DNA from: Escherichia phage vB_EcoM_JN03
DNA length: 64,000 nucleotides
Sequence record: OR885871
Reading direction: 5' to 3' (one strand)
The notes under the pieces were generated by a model that saw only the letters and a program-made list of their open reading frames with translations, searched no databases and was not told the DNA's origin. This document shows, piece after piece, positions 3,879-9,720 of this stretch (within the stretch, counting starts at the first letter, position 1; each line of letters starts with the position of its first letter). The translations under genes and the position numbers were made by a program.

Positions 3879-4238
3879 ATGGCTATCACCACAAAAACTG
3901 AATTGAACGCGATCCTGAAAGAAGCTGGCTTCGGTAGTATCAAACGCCAGGGCAAGGTTTTACGCGATGGCGGTAAAATCGTAAAGGGTATCATGTTGGG
4001 AAGTACTGGCCCGTTGAGCATCAGCTCCCCTCAGTATGACAATCTTCGTAAACTGGCGCGTGAACTTCTCCAAGAAGACCTCCATATCACGACGCAAGAA
4101 ACCAATTATGTGGTTTTGGAATGCAACAAATTCATCGTCAGCCTTTACATCTGCAGCACCCGCTCATATCCGGTGTCTGAAGGTTATGACCCAATGTATC
4201 TGACCCATTATGCTCAGGTTACTGTCAAAGTAAAATAA
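3879..4238 (+). CDS. hypothetical protein (N-terminus MAITTKTEL)
   Basis: RBS AAGGA 9 nt upstream of ATG 3879; ORF-track start 3858 is TTG. Confidence 0.5.
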   Translation: MAITTKTELNAILKEAGFGSIKRQGKVLRDGGKIVKGIMLGSTGPLSISSPQYDNLRKLARELLQEDLHITTQETNYVVLECNKFIVSLYICSTRSYPVSEGYDPMYLTHYAQVTVKVK

Positions 4239-4322: not shown

Positions 4323-6710
4323 ATGGCCATCCCATCTTTCTTGAACTTTCTTGAAGAGTCTAAACAATTAGACGAAGCGTTTAACTCATCCCCGTATGAA
4401 TTGACATTCGGCAAGAAGAACGCTGGTGACATTTTCTTCACATTTGTTGATGAAGACGAAAAAGAATTCCGTATTCAATTCTATACCCCACAAGGTCTAG
4501 GCAAGAATGTTCGCCAAGTCTTTATCGGTCAGAAGCGTGGTTCCACATATCCCGATGCCATCGGTCGTTTCAAGAATCCAATGCGTGTTATCGCATCCAT
4601 GATTGAAGCAACAAAGCAATTCATGGCGACGCCTTTGGGGAAAACCATTGACGGCTTTGCAATTAACTTCTCCAAGAAAGCATTGGAGCGTGGTGTTACC
4701 CTCCTGCCGAAGATTATCCGTCAGTCCGGCCTGAAGCAAAAGCTCAATGTCATGGACCTGACGTATACCCCTATCCCTGATCGTGCATTCGTATGGGTTG
4801 TGCGTAAAGGCAAGGATCCTGCTCAGGTATTCGATGGTCCGAAAATGAAAGGTGTCACATGGGATGATCCGGACAAAGTCGGTGACGTCCCGGTTCAGAA
4901 CAATACTCCGGATGTGGGAGTTGTGGCTGGTTCTTCTGAAATCGAAGTCAACCGCGATGACAACGGTTGGAAACTCACCAAAGCTAGTCGTACTCAGCCT
5001 ATGCTGGTCTGGTCTGGTAAAGAACGTGGGCGGACTATTACCGCCAATATCGCACCTCACGCGGATATACCTGGGGTGTATGCTGGTAGTATCATGAACG
5101 AGAAACGGATCCGCGCTCAATCTCCAGACGCTATTGTACGCCAACTGGGATTACCGCAGATCCCTGTGAATATTCTGAATGATTTCACCAAGCAGTCGTC
5201 CATCTTCTGGAAAGAGATGACGGGGGATTCTGGAAAAATAGACATGCAGAATTTGCCAAAAACAGGATCTGTGGATGACTTACGAAATCAGGGTTATATT
5301 GCTCGCCTTCTGGGGATTGTAGACACATATGCTCCACAACAGGTCGGTATGTATGCAGGTGAAAAACTAACACGAATCGGCGCGGGCAAATATCGTACTT
5401 CGGGTGGTCTGGACATTCAGGTTTATTTCTGGGGAATTGTCAACGGAAAACTTTCTGTAGAAGTAGTATCAGATTTGTCTGGTCATGACCAACTTATGCT
5501 GGAAGGAGATGTGAAAAACGCCGCTTATGAAATAGTGGGCGCAATCTCCCGTGCAGCCGATTCTCAATTTGCTGGAGAAGTAGAATGCCGTGTGGTTCCG
5601 ATCAATGGTGCCCCATATCCGATTCAAAAAATTTCCCGTTCTCAGGGATATTCTTACGTTGATTGTGGTTCTTTCACATTGAAGATCGCTGACGCTCTGC
5701 TGAATCGGTTTACCTTGGGCAAGGCGGTCAAACTTGATCTGATGAAAGAGTTTCCTCGTACAACATTCAAAGTCCGCTATGATTGGCGTGGAAAAGATAC
5801 TCTGTTGGTTCAATCTTCCGACGAGCGTACTATCTTTGGTGAAATCAACACCAATTCCAGTGAAAATGCAGTGATCACTGCAAACATCAAAGTGCCAAGC
5901 AATGCTAAATTTTTTGGTGAAACCGTTCATGGCTTCTCTGTAGCGTGGGATTTCCAGTTCCCTGCTGGTAGCAAGTTGCAAGCCGCAAGATTCGTTACCA
6001 ACGTAACTTACGATTTTGATCGAAACAAAGCCAACATCACCACCATGTTGGCTGAAAATGGTCGAAATGTAGTAGACAGCAATGGATATGATATTTCGTT
6101 GTCTGTCAAATCAGTGCAAGATGCATTGGATGAGATTTCTCGACGCCTGAAAGACGCGGCTTCGCAACTGAGCCACCTCAGTTCATCAAACTATAACCCT
6201 AACAATCTATTCCTGAATGACATCACTGTCAGTAAATTTGGCGCAATTATGTTCCAAGACAAAGATTTGGCACAGTCCAGGAACCGCACGGCAGTCATTG
6301 ATGCTCTGGCTCGGGCTAAAGATCAGGCTGCTGGAGGTAAGAATGCAGGTGATCTGGCCACCTATGCCGAATCCATTCGTGACAGCGCTCCTAATGGACG
6401 AGATCTGGATTGGCAGGTATACACAGCCAGTAATGGTACAGTTCTGAATGTTGCTTGGGATATCACTTTCCGTCGCAATACGACCGAAGGAGCATATCGT
6501 GAATTCAAGGATCAGATCAACCGTGCCAACCAATACCTGCAAACGGTATACAACGACGCGAAATCTAAAGGCTATAATCCTACCGTGCCAAATCTCATGA
6601 CTCTTGAACGCGCTCGCCAATCCGACGAATGGGCTATGAGTAATGGCGATAGTGCATACAGTGAATATGAACAATCGCTGGGCGGTAATCTTCAGATTAG
6701 TCTGAAATAA
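4323..6710 (+). CDS. large hypothetical protein (795 aa)
   Basis: Long ORF with RBS AGGAGA; no catalytic motif recognised. Confidence 0.55.
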   Translation: MAIPSFLNFLEESKQLDEAFNSSPYELTFGKKNAGDIFFTFVDEDEKEFRIQFYTPQGLGKNVRQVFIGQKRGSTYPDAIGRFKNPMRVIASMIEATKQFMATPLGKTIDGFAINFSKKALERGVTLLPKIIRQSGLKQKLNVMDLTYTPIPDRAFVWVVRKGKDPAQVFDGPKMKGVTWDDPDKVGDVPVQNNTPDVGVVAGSSEIEVNRDDNGWKLTKASRTQPMLVWSGKERGRTITANIAPHADIPGVYAGSIMNEKRIRAQSPDAIVRQLGLPQIPVNILNDFTKQSSIFWKEMTGDSGKIDMQNLPKTGSVDDLRNQGYIARLLGIVDTYAPQQVGMYAGEKLTRIGAGKYRTSGGLDIQVYFWGIVNGKLSVEVVSDLSGHDQLMLEGDVKNAAYEIVGAISRAADSQFAGEVECRVVPINGAPYPIQKISRSQGYSYVDCGSFTLKIADALLNRFTLGKAVKLDLMKEFPRTTFKVRYDWRGKDTLLVQSSDERTIFGEINTNSSENAVITANIKVPSNAKFFGETVHGFSVAWDFQFPAGSKLQAARFVTNVTYDFDRNKANITTMLAENGRNVVDSNGYDISLSVKSVQDALDEISRRLKDAASQLSHLSSSNYNPNNLFLNDITVSKFGAIMFQDKDLAQSRNRTAVIDALARAKDQAAGGKNAGDLATYAESIRDSAPNGRDLDWQVYTASNGTVLNVAWDITFRRNTTEGAYREFKDQINRANQYLQTVYNDAKSKGYNPTVPNLMTLERARQSDEWAMSNGDSAYSEYEQSLGGNLQISLK

Positions 6711-6761: not shown

Positions 6762-7307
6762 ATGAAACCGTTTATCGAATATTTTAAAGAACAAGCTCAA
6801 CAACCGCAAACACATGGCGGCATACAAGGCAAAAGTGTAACCATCACCAAACAGGCCGACGGAACCCAATGGTGTACTGGTGCCACCGTAACCCAGATCA
6901 CTCCAGATAATCAGGCCGACATCTATAATCTGGAATTGACTAATGGCAACACCATCAAAGTGAAGCTAACTCCAGACCAGACCCACGGCATTACCCAAGG
7001 CCAAGAAGTCGTTGCCGTCCATGATGGGTTTGAATTCTTCTTCGGCAAGTCGGCTGACAAAGGTCAGGTTACTGAAACGGAAGGCTGGCGTTTCGTCGGT
7101 GACCGTGGCGCTCATATTCTGATGTATGACGCAAAAGTTGGCGGTGCCTCCACTATCCTTCGCAGTCCAACAGATCGAACCAAATTTGTTGGTGGTCTCA
7201 TCAACGGCAGAAAAATTTTGGGTAATTCCCCAGAAGAACTGGCGGCAAAATTAGGTCTTCCAAAAATTCCTGATAATTTATTAAAATCATTTTTTGGTAA
7301 AAAGTGA
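6762..7307 (+). CDS. hypothetical protein, C-terminal motif shared with upstream 795-aa protein
   Basis: RBS GGAGA; C-terminus SPEELAAKLGLPKIPDNLLKSF. Confidence 0.5.
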   Translation: MKPFIEYFKEQAQQPQTHGGIQGKSVTITKQADGTQWCTGATVTQITPDNQADIYNLELTNGNTIKVKLTPDQTHGITQGQEVVAVHDGFEFFFGKSADKGQVTETEGWRFVGDRGAHILMYDAKVGGASTILRSPTDRTKFVGGLINGRKILGNSPEELAAKLGLPKIPDNLLKSFFGKK

Positions 7308-7321
7308 TTACAAAATACAAT

Positions 7322-7349
7322 CCCCCTAAATACAGGGGGATTTTCTTTT
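7322..7349 (+). terminator. rho-independent terminator
   Basis: CCCCCT-loop-AGGGGG then ATTTTCTTTT. Confidence 0.6.
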
Positions 7350-7362
7350 AGGGGTAAATATC

Positions 7363-7716
7363 ATGGTCAATGCGAGTATATTCATCAACCGTGGACTGCT
7401 TGCTATAGCCCACTCTCATGCCCTCCACTTCGTTACAACGTCCTATGCCAAGCACAAGGCGCTCGGGGAGTTCTACGGGGAACTGGAGGACTTGCTGGAC
7501 ACCTTTACGGAAGCGTATATTGGTGCGGGAGGTATATACATTCCAGGATTCGAGAACATCAAATTGTACAATCCTGAACCGATATCGTATATCAACAGCG
7601 TGGTCATCGACGTTAATGGGATCTACAATCAGTGTGATAGTCATCTTCAAAATACGCTTGACGAAATCAAGACTCTGTGCTATCAAACGATTTACAAACT
7701 GAAGCAATTGTCTTAA
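7363..7716 (+). CDS. hypothetical protein
   Basis: ATG ORF after terminator; preferred over antisense ORF 7348-7707. Confidence 0.4.
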   Translation: MVNASIFINRGLLAIAHSHALHFVTTSYAKHKALGEFYGELEDLLDTFTEAYIGAGGIYIPGFENIKLYNPEPISYINSVVIDVNGIYNQCDSHLQNTLDEIKTLCYQTIYKLKQLS

Positions 7717-7779
7717 CTCAATAGAACATCCTTCAGGTTATAATTTTGCCCATTCGTCATCAATAGGATACAGATAACA

Positions 7780-8397
7780 ATGGGCAAAATATTCATACCT
7801 TCGCATTCAGAAGGTTGTCAAATCGCTGCAAAATTTCTACACAAACAAATGAATTGTGGTGCTGTGTTCGTAGAACCAAATTCATTCGATAATCGTGAAT
7901 CCCCTGACGCCATCGGGTTCAGACCTGGGGGTTGTTCTATATTAATGGAAGTTAAAGTCTCCCGCGCCGACTTCCTGACAGACAAAAAGAAACCTCATCG
8001 CATGAATCCTTCCATAGGCATGGGAGCATATCGTTTCTATGTTTGCCCAGCAGATGTTATTAAAATTGAAGACCTCCCTCCCAAATGGGGTTTGTTGTAC
8101 TTCACCCCTAGAAAATCTTTGAAGCCCGTTCACGTTCCGAATATGCAATATTCCTCTTTGTCTTCACCGGAACATTATGCATCATATTTGTCTAAATCTT
8201 TGGGCAAAAGAAGACATACAGATATCCCTCCTTATCTATTAGGGTACAAACAGATGCTGGAAGAATTCGCCCACTTTGAACGCAATCAGGTTGCGGAACA
8301 AAATATTCTGTATGGGGCTTGGCGACAGCTTTGCATAGCTCAAAGTCGCGGGGTGGATTATAATGTGACAGAAGTGTTCCAGAGGCCAAATATCTAA
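7780..8397 (+). CDS. PD-(D/E)xK-type nuclease-like protein
   Basis: Motif PDAIGF...ILMEVK (PD-x12-EVK); stop overlaps primase start. Confidence 0.4.
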   Translation: MGKIFIPSHSEGCQIAAKFLHKQMNCGAVFVEPNSFDNRESPDAIGFRPGGCSILMEVKVSRADFLTDKKKPHRMNPSIGMGAYRFYVCPADVIKIEDLPPKWGLLYFTPRKSLKPVHVPNMQYSSLSSPEHYASYLSKSLGKRRHTDIPPYLLGYKQMLEEFAHFERNQVAEQNILYGAWRQLCIAQSRGVDYNVTEVFQRPNI

Positions 8398-9461
8398 TGA
8401 AATTCTTGGACGAACAATACATCAATTTTCTCGCCCCCCGACTTGATAAATTCAGTTGGGAACGTGTTGGCGCTGTCGCCAAATTTCGTTGCCCATTATG
8501 TGGGGATTCTAAGAAGAGTGCCAACAAGCGTCGTGGTCACTTCTTTTATGATCGTGATGACGATGTGTTTCGTTTCAAGTGCCACAACTGTAATGAAATG
8601 AGCGGTTGGGCGTTTGAATTCTGGTTGAAGAAGTTTGACGAGCGTCTGTATAATGAATACAACCTTGAAAAATTCAGGATCATGGGGGATACCAGTTCCC
8701 GCCCGTTACAAAAACTCAAACCACTACAGCGCCTGACCCAGACAGCACGTATCGGTTCTCAGGTCGCCAAACGGGATGAAGAGCACCTTGGGAATATGAT
8801 ACGCCTTGATCTTCTTGACCGTGATCATATCGCCCGTCGTTATGTTGAAGGCAGGGGTATGCCGGAGAGCACGTTATCTTTGTTGTATTACAGCAGGAAT
8901 TTTCGTCAAGATCTTCTGAGTTTCGAAACGGATGTTGAGAAGCAGAAGAAGATACCCGAAGATGAGCGGCTGGTAATCCCATTCTGGACCCAAGACGGGC
9001 GCATGAAGATAGTTCAGGGGCGCGCATTCGGCGATAACCTTCCTGATGGGGTATTACGGTATGCCACTGTCAAGCCTAAGAACGAAGATACTAAGATCTA
9101 CGGGGAAGAGCGCATCATTTGGAACAAAACAAAGTTGGTAGTAGAAGGTCCAATTGATAGCTTGTTTCTACCCAATTGTCTTGCGACTGCCGATGCCGAC
9201 TTATTAAGTGCTAAGGGAGACATCTATATCCCCGATAACCAATACAGGAACAAACAAGTTTGTGACGGTATACAGAAGATGATAGACAGCGGAGTCAAAG
9301 TCGTTCTGTTTCCACCGGAAATACCGTGGAAGGATATCAATGATATGGTTCACCCCGATAAGGGAAATATCCCGATACGTGATCTGCTTCAGATCATAGC
9401 CAAGAACGTATATCAGGGACTGTCGGCGTCCTTACGATTTTCTGACTTGAGGAAGATATGA
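8397..9461 (+). CDS. DNA primase (T4 gp61-like)
   Basis: Zinc ribbon CPLCGDS...CHNCN and Toprim-like VVEGPIDSLF. Confidence 0.7.
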   Translation: MKFLDEQYINFLAPRLDKFSWERVGAVAKFRCPLCGDSKKSANKRRGHFFYDRDDDVFRFKCHNCNEMSGWAFEFWLKKFDERLYNEYNLEKFRIMGDTSSRPLQKLKPLQRLTQTARIGSQVAKRDEEHLGNMIRLDLLDRDHIARRYVEGRGMPESTLSLLYYSRNFRQDLLSFETDVEKQKKIPEDERLVIPFWTQDGRMKIVQGRAFGDNLPDGVLRYATVKPKNEDTKIYGEERIIWNKTKLVVEGPIDSLFLPNCLATADADLLSAKGDIYIPDNQYRNKQVCDGIQKMIDSGVKVVLFPPEIPWKDINDMVHPDKGNIPIRDLLQIIAKNVYQGLSASLRFSDLRKI

Positions 9462-9667
9462 TGGATTTGAAAGAACTGAATAGTATGGACGATGAAGAGA
9501 TTCTTCGCGGGTATATGCAAGCCCGTGAAGGATATGTCCTATCTGGCTTAGAATCTAAGAGTTTCATCCATGGTTGGAGGAATGGAATGGTGGACTTCGG
9601 CGGTTGTCCTATCACTGAAGAACAAATGGATTTGGCTCGCCAGTATTTGAAAAAGAAGCCGACCTAA
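9458..9667 (+). CDS. hypothetical protein
   Basis: ATGA-coupled to primase. Confidence 0.4.
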   Translation: MMDLKELNSMDDEEILRGYMQAREGYVLSGLESKSFIHGWRNGMVDFGGCPITEEQMDLARQYLKKKPT

Positions 9668-9695
9668 AACTTTTTAACTCAAAAACCTTCTCTCT

Positions 9696-9720
9696 AGGCC
9701 TCATTCTACGAGGCCTTTTA
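9696..9720 (+). terminator. rho-independent terminator
   Basis: AGGCCTC-loop-GAGGCCT then TTTTA. Confidence 0.6.

Follow-up and report, generated by a model that had tools for sequence, protein, structure and literature searches.

A 64,000-nucleotide stretch of Escherichia phage vB_EcoM_JN03 (sequence record OR885871; hereafter the window, given as one strand, 5' to 3') carries, directly upstream of a DNA primase gene, an open reading frame (ORF) whose product is probably a small, basic, metal-dependent PD-(D/E)xK DNA endonuclease that, while the phage replicates, recombines or repairs its DNA, cuts damaged or branched intermediates, as judged from homology and predicted fold. By its sequence profile the protein is a remote sister of the MmcB-like (DUF1052) nucleases and lies outside PF06319 as Pfam defines that family. 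Over bases 7000-9700 the window shares 97-98.5% identity with many genomes of Kuttervirus (Ackermannviridae), those of Escherichia phage CBA120 and Salmonella phage bering among them, and the counterpart of the nuclease in CBA120, orf107, is 99% identical and annotated as a "hypothetical protein". The start codon used here is the first one past the upstream stop.

7780..8397, + strand: coding sequence of the predicted MmcB-like PD-(D/E)xK nuclease; 205 amino acids (aa), 23.4 kDa, isoelectric point 9.2; matches phrog_631 at 2.2e-82.

The motif region of the protein reads SPDAIGFRPGGCSILMEVKVSRADF, with P42-D43 encoded at 7903-7908, E57 at 7948-7950, followed by V58, and K59 at 7954-7956. The first-pass annotation had described this as a textbook PD...ExK motif. 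The residues are present, but the bare pattern, PD-x(8,30)-[DE]-x-K, stands at chance level, and since it also matches 6 of the 90 ORFs of the window and 7.2% of shuffles of the nuclease protein, the motif alone is weak evidence. It rises above chance because its residues are conserved among homologues. A protein search space of 5.8 billion yielded 41 homologues, 28 of which were aligned (alignment A1, down to 35% identity); H9, E32, E40, P42, D43, E57, K59, R62, D64, D68 and K71 are invariant in this set, as are R74, G80, G82, R85, W103, G104 and L105. An exhaustive profile search extended the family to 7186 representative clusters (50% identity) at E<=1e-3. Among 75 of these cluster representatives (alignment A2, 28-42% identity to the query), the invariant residues are D43, E57 and K59, together with E40, D64, D68, K71, R74, G82, R85, P100, G104 and L105. 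Loss of the catalytic residues among homologues had been named beforehand as the finding that would speak against a nuclease; D43, E57 and K59 are instead retained in every one of the 28 and 75 sequences. A family signature, S61-R62-x-D64-F65-x-x-D68-x-x-K71-x-x-R74, comes after K59. The ratio of nonsynonymous to synonymous substitution rates (dN/dS) is 0.03-0.15 against the orthologues of Limestonevirus, Agtrevirus and CBA120, with differences concentrated at third codon positions, which indicates that this is a genuine coding gene under purifying selection.

7873..7956, + strand: predicted active-site segment, with E32 (7873-7875), E40, P42-D43, E57 and K59; (near-)invariant in A1 and A2.

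The predicted fold agrees with this placement. The AlphaFold (AF2) model computed from the alignment has a predicted local distance difference test score (pLDDT) of 90 and a predicted template-modelling score (pTM) of 0.86, and divides the protein into a nuclease core and a helical C-terminal region.

7780..8139, + strand: N-terminal nuclease core, residues about 1-120 (AF2 model); the portion common to homologues of Stx phages, Vibrio phages and bacteria, and the portion that aligns to MmcB.

8155..8349, + strand: C-terminal region of three helices (130-142, 151-163, 170-189; AF2 model), in which E173 is near-invariant.

In the model, the core consists of a helix (9-22), three strands (28-31, 44-48, 52-58), two short helices (62-68, 72-75) and three further strands (84-89, 103-108, 114-118). 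The order helix-strand-strand-strand-helix-strand is that of the canonical PD-(D/E)xK core by which the superfamily fold is recognized. The model puts D43 just ahead of strand 2, at its start, and has strand 3 carry E57 and K59; this is the canonical catalytic layout, and the topology would bring the three residues together in space. The best Foldseek match in the PDB is 3dnx (SPO1766), with E 1.3e-4, probability 1.00 and a target-normalised TM score of 0.61. Weaker Foldseek matches are mainly to PD-(D/E)xK nucleases, namely Cas4 SSO0001, R.BspD6I, NucS/EndoMS, McrC, Bax1, SfsA, Hjc, BamHI and VRR-NUC, and significant matches in BFVD, a collection of predicted viral structures, include several phage entries named "MmcB-like DNA repair protein". 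The earlier identification of a stand-alone PD-(D/E)xK nuclease is borne out by the conserved D43, E57 and K59, by the canonical predicted fold, and by structure and profile matches to MmcB-like proteins. Apart from E173, which at least 90% of the sequences in A1 and likewise in A2 share, the sequence of the C-terminal region is specific to members of the Ackermannviridae type. A low-stringency hhalign comparison gave no convincing alignment of the E173 helix with the conserved C-terminal glutamate of MmcB.

Single-protein sequence searches of Pfam, NCBIfam and the PDB found no match to the window protein. The A2 family profile matches the sequence of 3dnx at E 1.2e-4, over the segment E...D...E-x-K-S-R-A-D-F. 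DUF1052 (PF06319) has been placed in the PD-(D/E)xK superfamily, with 3dnx as its representative structure (PMC3424549). Genuine MmcB genes for a profile-to-profile comparison were taken from rhizobial replicons by plasmid tblastn, which replaced a 42-aa fragment of 3dnx that gave short fragments only as a query; the collected family all carry PF06319, and 26 of these proteins form alignment A4. Comparison of A2 with A4 by hhalign gave an alignment of 84 columns at E 2.7e-6, running from strand 1 through the P-x-x-W/C-G-L strand, and in it the active-site columns of the window protein fall on MmcB E42, D52, E66-x-K68 and S70..D73-F74..D77. The profile search that the first-pass annotation had proposed has in this way yielded a relation to MmcB-like/DUF1052 proteins, by hhalign and by the match to 3dnx. 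The window protein also matches phrog_2776 and phrog_5429 ("DNA repair protein"), more weakly than it matches phrog_631; a genuine S. meliloti MmcB matches the same two clusters, and its scores are close to those that the window protein obtains.

The characterised member of the related family is Caulobacter MmcB, an SOS-induced endonuclease of the PD-(D/E)xK type, which shields the cell against mitomycin C and cisplatin and possibly takes part in interstrand cross-link repair (PMC9578287). Both the MmcB-like/DUF1052/COG5321 proteins and the window protein are single-domain PD-(D/E)xK proteins, the former of about 150-200 aa, and they have in common the order E (strand 1)...D (strand 2)...E-x-K-x-S-x-x-D-F-x-x-D-x-K...R (strand 4)...P-x-x-x-G-L (strand 5). 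Identity to MmcB is nevertheless about 20% over the 84 columns, and the window family differs in its C-terminal helical region and in having invariants of its own (H9, E40, G80-M-G82, W103). The genes for MmcB proteins lie on chromosomes, mainly those of alphaproteobacteria, whereas the window family is found mostly in phages and prophages, and both the repair role (resistance to mitomycin C and cisplatin) and the SOS regulation are known for Caulobacter MmcB only. The closest cluster, phrog_631, which the window protein matches over nearly its full length and which also contains the homologues of an Stx2 phage and of Vibrio phage X29, is a sequence cluster of unknown function, without a curated name or structure. 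In the literature, phage members are named by homology only, within replication or repair modules, and otherwise appear in superfamily surveys.

Two other groups of small nucleases invite comparison. An early analysis tied DUF1052 to resolvases of the Hjc type (PMC1189080), and archaeal Hjc (PF01870) is, like the window protein, a minimal PD-(D/E)xK core of similar size. The likeness is at superfamily level only, with Foldseek E values of 0.7-2.0 for 2wiw and 2wj0; the PF01870 model does not match the window protein, and 4 of the 75 relatives in A2 match it weakly, at E about 3e-3. A role as a Holliday junction resolvase was downgraded because CBA120 already has a RuvC-like resolvase and because Vibrio phage X29 has RusA beside its homologue. 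The second comparison is with endonuclease I of phage T7, the product of gene 3, a small, structure-specific PD-(D/E)xK nuclease that helps to break down host DNA. Its gene, like that of the window protein, lies in a replication block upstream of a primase/helicase gene. The two proteins have no detectable sequence relation, and T7 endonuclease I belongs to a different subfamily with a domain-swapped architecture; the likeness in fold is very weak, the endonuclease I of Vibrio phage ICP2 matching in BFVD at E 0.54.

The contexts in which the family occurs are those of DNA replication and recombination. Stx-converting lambdoid phages have the nuclease core of about 110 N-terminal residues too, encoded in their exo-xis region on the downstream side of exo, bet and gam. 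The homologue of Vibrio phage X29 lies amid genes for an exonuclease, RNase T, DUF551, DUF1064, RusA, Dam and SSB proteins, and many Vibrio phages, other large phage genomes and one P1-named phage record have homologues as well. Across 65 diverse viral contigs, the genes that repeatedly lie nearby are those for DnaB helicase and an HTH_36/DnaD_N initiator, for RecT and YqaJ exonuclease, for C5 and Dam methyltransferases, and for DUF1064 and a small terminase, in counts inflated by related contigs of one metagenome; this neighbourhood is an early replication/recombination module. Of 5426 complete E. coli genomes, 931 (17%) carry the homologue of the Stx-prophage type, at 1300 places, 250 of them on plasmids; this homologue is a "hypothetical protein" in every record listed and often adjoins a DUF551 gene. 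In the Stx2a phage F349 it is a protein of 171 aa (L004:4992-5507) encoded after a TraR/DksA-like gene and an ORF of 315 aa. Nothing relevant turned up in literature searches covering the exo-xis region or transcriptomes of Kuttervirus. Three distant relatives on metagenomic contigs have mixed contexts (mobile-element-like, phage-like and chromosomal). One distant homologue, P0028 (L007:11687-16681), lies on a metagenomic contig that resembles a plasmid or an integrative and conjugative element and carries topoisomerase and KorA genes; DndB, helicase and Cas6 (Csf5, type IV) genes follow about 3 kb and further downstream, which may be coincidental.

Within the Ackermannviridae the gene is a vertically inherited, near-core gene. 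By tblastn the nuclease protein was found in 647 phage records. At 60% identity or more, the nuclease is present in 265 phage records and the primase in 279, and the locus of Serratia phage 2050H1 falls in the gap between these counts, its nuclease being 52% and its primase 60% identical. The nuclease lies directly upstream of the primase in Kuttervirus (CBA120), Menlow, Taipeivirus, Miltonvirus, Serratia phage 2050H1 and the Vibrio phages D495 and 207E48.1, while the other genes that flank the pair vary among Kuttervirus, Taipeivirus, Miltonvirus and the Vibrio phages. Nuclease/primase identities (%) at the compared loci are 99/100, 75/77, 75/77, 70/84, 52/60, 39/46 and 36/46; the identity of the nuclease thus tracks that of the primase at every locus, indicating vertical co-inheritance. 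In Serratia phage 2050H1 (MF285619.1; L011:3925-4534) the orthologue is frameshifted near codon 24, so that the first 24 residues are in the ORF 3925-4020 and the rest in another frame, and the deposited coding sequence starts internally; the cause is either an error in sequencing or true decay to a pseudogene.

The junction between nuclease and primase is an insertion hotspot in relatives. Dickeya phage XF4 (Limestonevirus; L014:3615-4271) carries between the two genes a homing endonuclease of 218 aa (F-LimV; phrog_655, 2e-51), Salmonella phage allotria (L002:3615-3779) has at this junction a 54-aa remnant of the XF4-type homing endonuclease, and Shigella phage Gloob (Agtrevirus; L016:3622-3906) has an unrelated ORF of 94 aa (phrog_22447). 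Because other genes, a real homing endonuclease included, insert at this junction, the nuclease is not the mobile element of the locus. The window protein matches none of the homing-endonuclease families of PHROGs or Pfam, and the sporadic presence, incongruent with flanking genes, by which a homing gene would be recognized was not found.

It appears from these relations that the protein may act as follows. D43 (start of strand 2) and the strand-3 residues E57 and K59 would bind Mg2+, activate a water molecule and cut the phosphodiester bond, with E32 and/or E40 probably assisting at the catalytic centre; DNA would be contacted by SRADFLTDKKKPHR, the basic helix that follows the active site. 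The window protein is without a separate sequence-reading domain. Given this, and given that MmcB is its nearest relative, that the resolvases are farther away, and that the family occurs in replication and recombination contexts, a structure-specific or damage-specific role is most likely, and the activity would involve neither sequence-specific recognition nor homing. The first-pass annotation had left the role open among structure-specific, homing-type and repair nucleases; homing has become disfavoured, and a repair or structure-specific nuclease is the best reading, by homology only.

Several points weigh against this reading. The PF06319 model does not match the window protein even at E<=1, the Pfam gathering threshold is not reached by it, and the model matches 3 of the 28 relatives in A1 and 2 of the 75 in A2 weakly (best E 1.9e-4). 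The hhalign probability for A2 against A4, 88.5%, is good, not overwhelming, and the MmcB profile behind it is made of closely related sequences. The putative activity and substrate of the phage family are both drawn from homology. Outside the Ackermannviridae, the contexts are of a generic early-region kind, without a fixed partner. No obvious gap is left in the replication and recombination toolkit of CBA120, which has a RuvC-like resolvase, gp46/47 and an exonuclease. Finally, in Escherichia phage LHE287 (PP761450.1; L003:3853-4096) about 430 bp are deleted from the interior of the nuclease gene, and the primase is intact; the first nine or so nuclease codons remain, with a frameshifted 3' part directly ahead of the primase gene. 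LHE287 can be regarded as a natural knockout, which suggests that the nuclease gene is dispensable for propagation. With a RuvC-like resolvase, gp46/47 and an exonuclease at hand, the nuclease is probably auxiliary, in agreement with its loss in LHE287.

One further reading, which is doubtful and offered tentatively, is that the nuclease and the primase form a functional module, in which nicks or the processing of stalled forks and branches would make sites for re-priming by gp61/gp41, or in which the nuclease would act on modified DNA; more broadly, phrog_631 would be a major phage nuclease family with a distinct early, replication or recombination activity.

Of the readings that depart from a nuclease for damaged or branched DNA, a nuclease of host takeover is unlikely, although it accounts for several observations. 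Such an enzyme would degrade unmodified host DNA, spare the modified DNA of the phage and feed nucleotides to replication, like T4 EndoII and EndoIV or T7 gp3, and DNA with hypermodified thymidine is a known trait of ViI-like phages. The active site appears intact and the protein is basic, the gene lies in a region of replication and nucleotide metabolism, with the genes for primase, PhoH and ribonucleotide reductase nearby, and it is dispensable in one relative, as is often the case for nucleases that degrade host DNA. Close members of the family are nevertheless carried by temperate Stx phages, prophages and bacterial contigs, and a prophage homologue by the 931 E. coli genomes, where indiscriminate degradation of host DNA would be harmful. 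The phages of these settings are not known for DNA modification, and MmcB, the closest relative to have been characterised, acts in repair.

That the gene is instead an accessory gene of conflict, acting outside the replication machinery in anti-defence, in superinfection exclusion or as a prophage defence nuclease, is quite unlikely. PADLOC-DB defence models matched neither the window protein nor seven relatives at E<=0.1, and a near-core gene with low dN/dS, fixed beside the primase over 36-100% identity, differs from the genes of fast turnover that take part in such conflicts. This idea draws on the position of the lambdoid Stx-phage homologue in the variable exo-xis accessory region, on the non-essential status of the gene in LHE287, on the highly variable C-terminal extensions of the family, which include coiled coils and fusions, and on the one bacterial or mobile-element context near DndB, helicase and Cas6 genes.

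A third possibility is very improbable: that the nuclease fold has become catalytically inert and serves as a DNA-binding or scaffold subunit of a primase/helicase complex. The tight coupling of the gene to the primase gene and a C-terminal helical region without an assigned role are in keeping with such a subunit, whereas the catalytic triad and the additional acidic residues are invariant over a wide divergence, as in active enzymes.

A free-standing homing endonuclease aimed at the primase locus, the type that the first-pass annotation had raised together with a search for a mobility signature, can hardly be what this gene encodes: a few PD-(D/E)xK homing enzymes exist, and a small stand-alone nuclease gene does abut a conserved replication gene and is absent from one relative, but its near-universal, syntenic presence and its divergence in step with the primase are those of vertical descent under strong purifying selection, LHE287 has an internal deletion that keeps both gene ends in place of a clean empty site, and the junction with the primase is held in XF4 by the separate phrog_655 homing endonuclease, of which allotria has the remnant.

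The nuclease gene belongs to a cluster of genes. In CBA120 the nuclease (orf107) lies between the DUF5856 gene (orf108) and the gene of the gp61-type primase (orf106); gp46/47 are found upstream of the locus, and the PhoH and ribonucleotide reductase genes downstream. The corresponding features of the window are the following.

7319..7342, no strand assigned: strong bidirectional terminator-like hairpin, with a stem of 9-10 bp and a T-run on both strands, found by consensus scan alone.

7363..7716, + strand: DUF5856 gene, 117 aa, upstream of the nuclease; PF19174 at 1.4e-28, phrog_858.

7765-7768, + strand: Shine-Dalgarno-like AGGA ahead of the nuclease ATG, read from the sequence.

8381..8385, + strand: putative Shine-Dalgarno-like AGAGG for the primase, within the 3' end of the nuclease gene, read from the sequence.

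8395..8399, + strand: TAATG junction, in which the nuclease TAA (8395-8397) and the primase ATG (8397-8399) share one A, read from the sequence.

8397..9461, + strand: T4 gp61-type DNA primase, 354 aa; phrog_47 at 2.1e-78, annotated as DNA primase in relatives.

9458..9667, + strand: small conserved ORF, 69 aa, the last of the cluster, overlapping the primase stop; phrog_4460.

The TAATG junction to a primase gene, as first described, is confirmed, both in the one-base overlap and in the assignment of the downstream ORF to the primase cluster phrog_47; by tblastn with this primase, T4-like primases were reached at about 30-35% identity. The same one-base overlap of nuclease and primase is annotated in CBA120 and Menlow, and it suggests that translation of the two genes is coupled. 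The 69-aa ORF is kept at the loci of Kuttervirus, Limestonevirus, Taipeivirus and Miltonvirus.

The hairpin (AATCCCCCTAAATACAGGGGGATT) sits between an ORF of 181 aa (6762-7307) and the DUF5856 gene, and is probably the upstream boundary of a unit made up of DUF5856, nuclease, primase and the 69-aa ORF, with the DUF5856 gene probably the first gene of the transcription unit to which the nuclease belongs. In the consensus scan the junctions from the DUF5856 gene to the nuclease gene and from there to the primase gene were free of terminator-like sites, which suggests a single transcript; the nuclease would accordingly be co-transcribed with DUF5856, the gp61-type primase and the small ORF, and probably be translationally coupled to the primase. 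A scan for sigma-70 promoters stood at chance level (7 found, 6.9 expected), and the conserved TATAATTTTG 5' of the nuclease gene shows no enrichment within the window, so no promoter is claimed. The DUF5856 gene is named variously in relatives, as "starvation-inducible transcriptional regulator", "MobD.6 protein", "unknown structural protein" or "hypothetical".

The protein is of a well-known kind that will not surprise a specialist; its family is very common yet uncurated, with the 7186 clusters and with the prophage homologue in E. coli genomes, Stx-converting phages included. The present assignment gives a testable biochemical identity to a gene found in about 260 Ackermannviridae genomes, where it is mostly "hypothetical", and these include candidates for therapy and biocontrol among the relatives of CBA120. 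Characterising one member would supply an annotation for thousands of genes and would warrant a new Pfam or NCBIfam model.

Some homologues carry other names, either "putative adenylosuccinate synthase" or "structural protein", as in Gloob gp87 (L016:2971-3612), Yersinia phage vB_YenS_P400 and the Vibrio phages pVa-1 and pVa-3; these names find no support here and look like propagated annotation errors. Elsewhere in the window, 4323-6710 holds an ORF of 795 aa that belongs to phrog_3867 (unknown function), is without a Pfam domain and corresponds to CBA120 orf111 ("possible fusion protein"); in relatives it varies in length and has an annotated internal repeat region (allotria_82).

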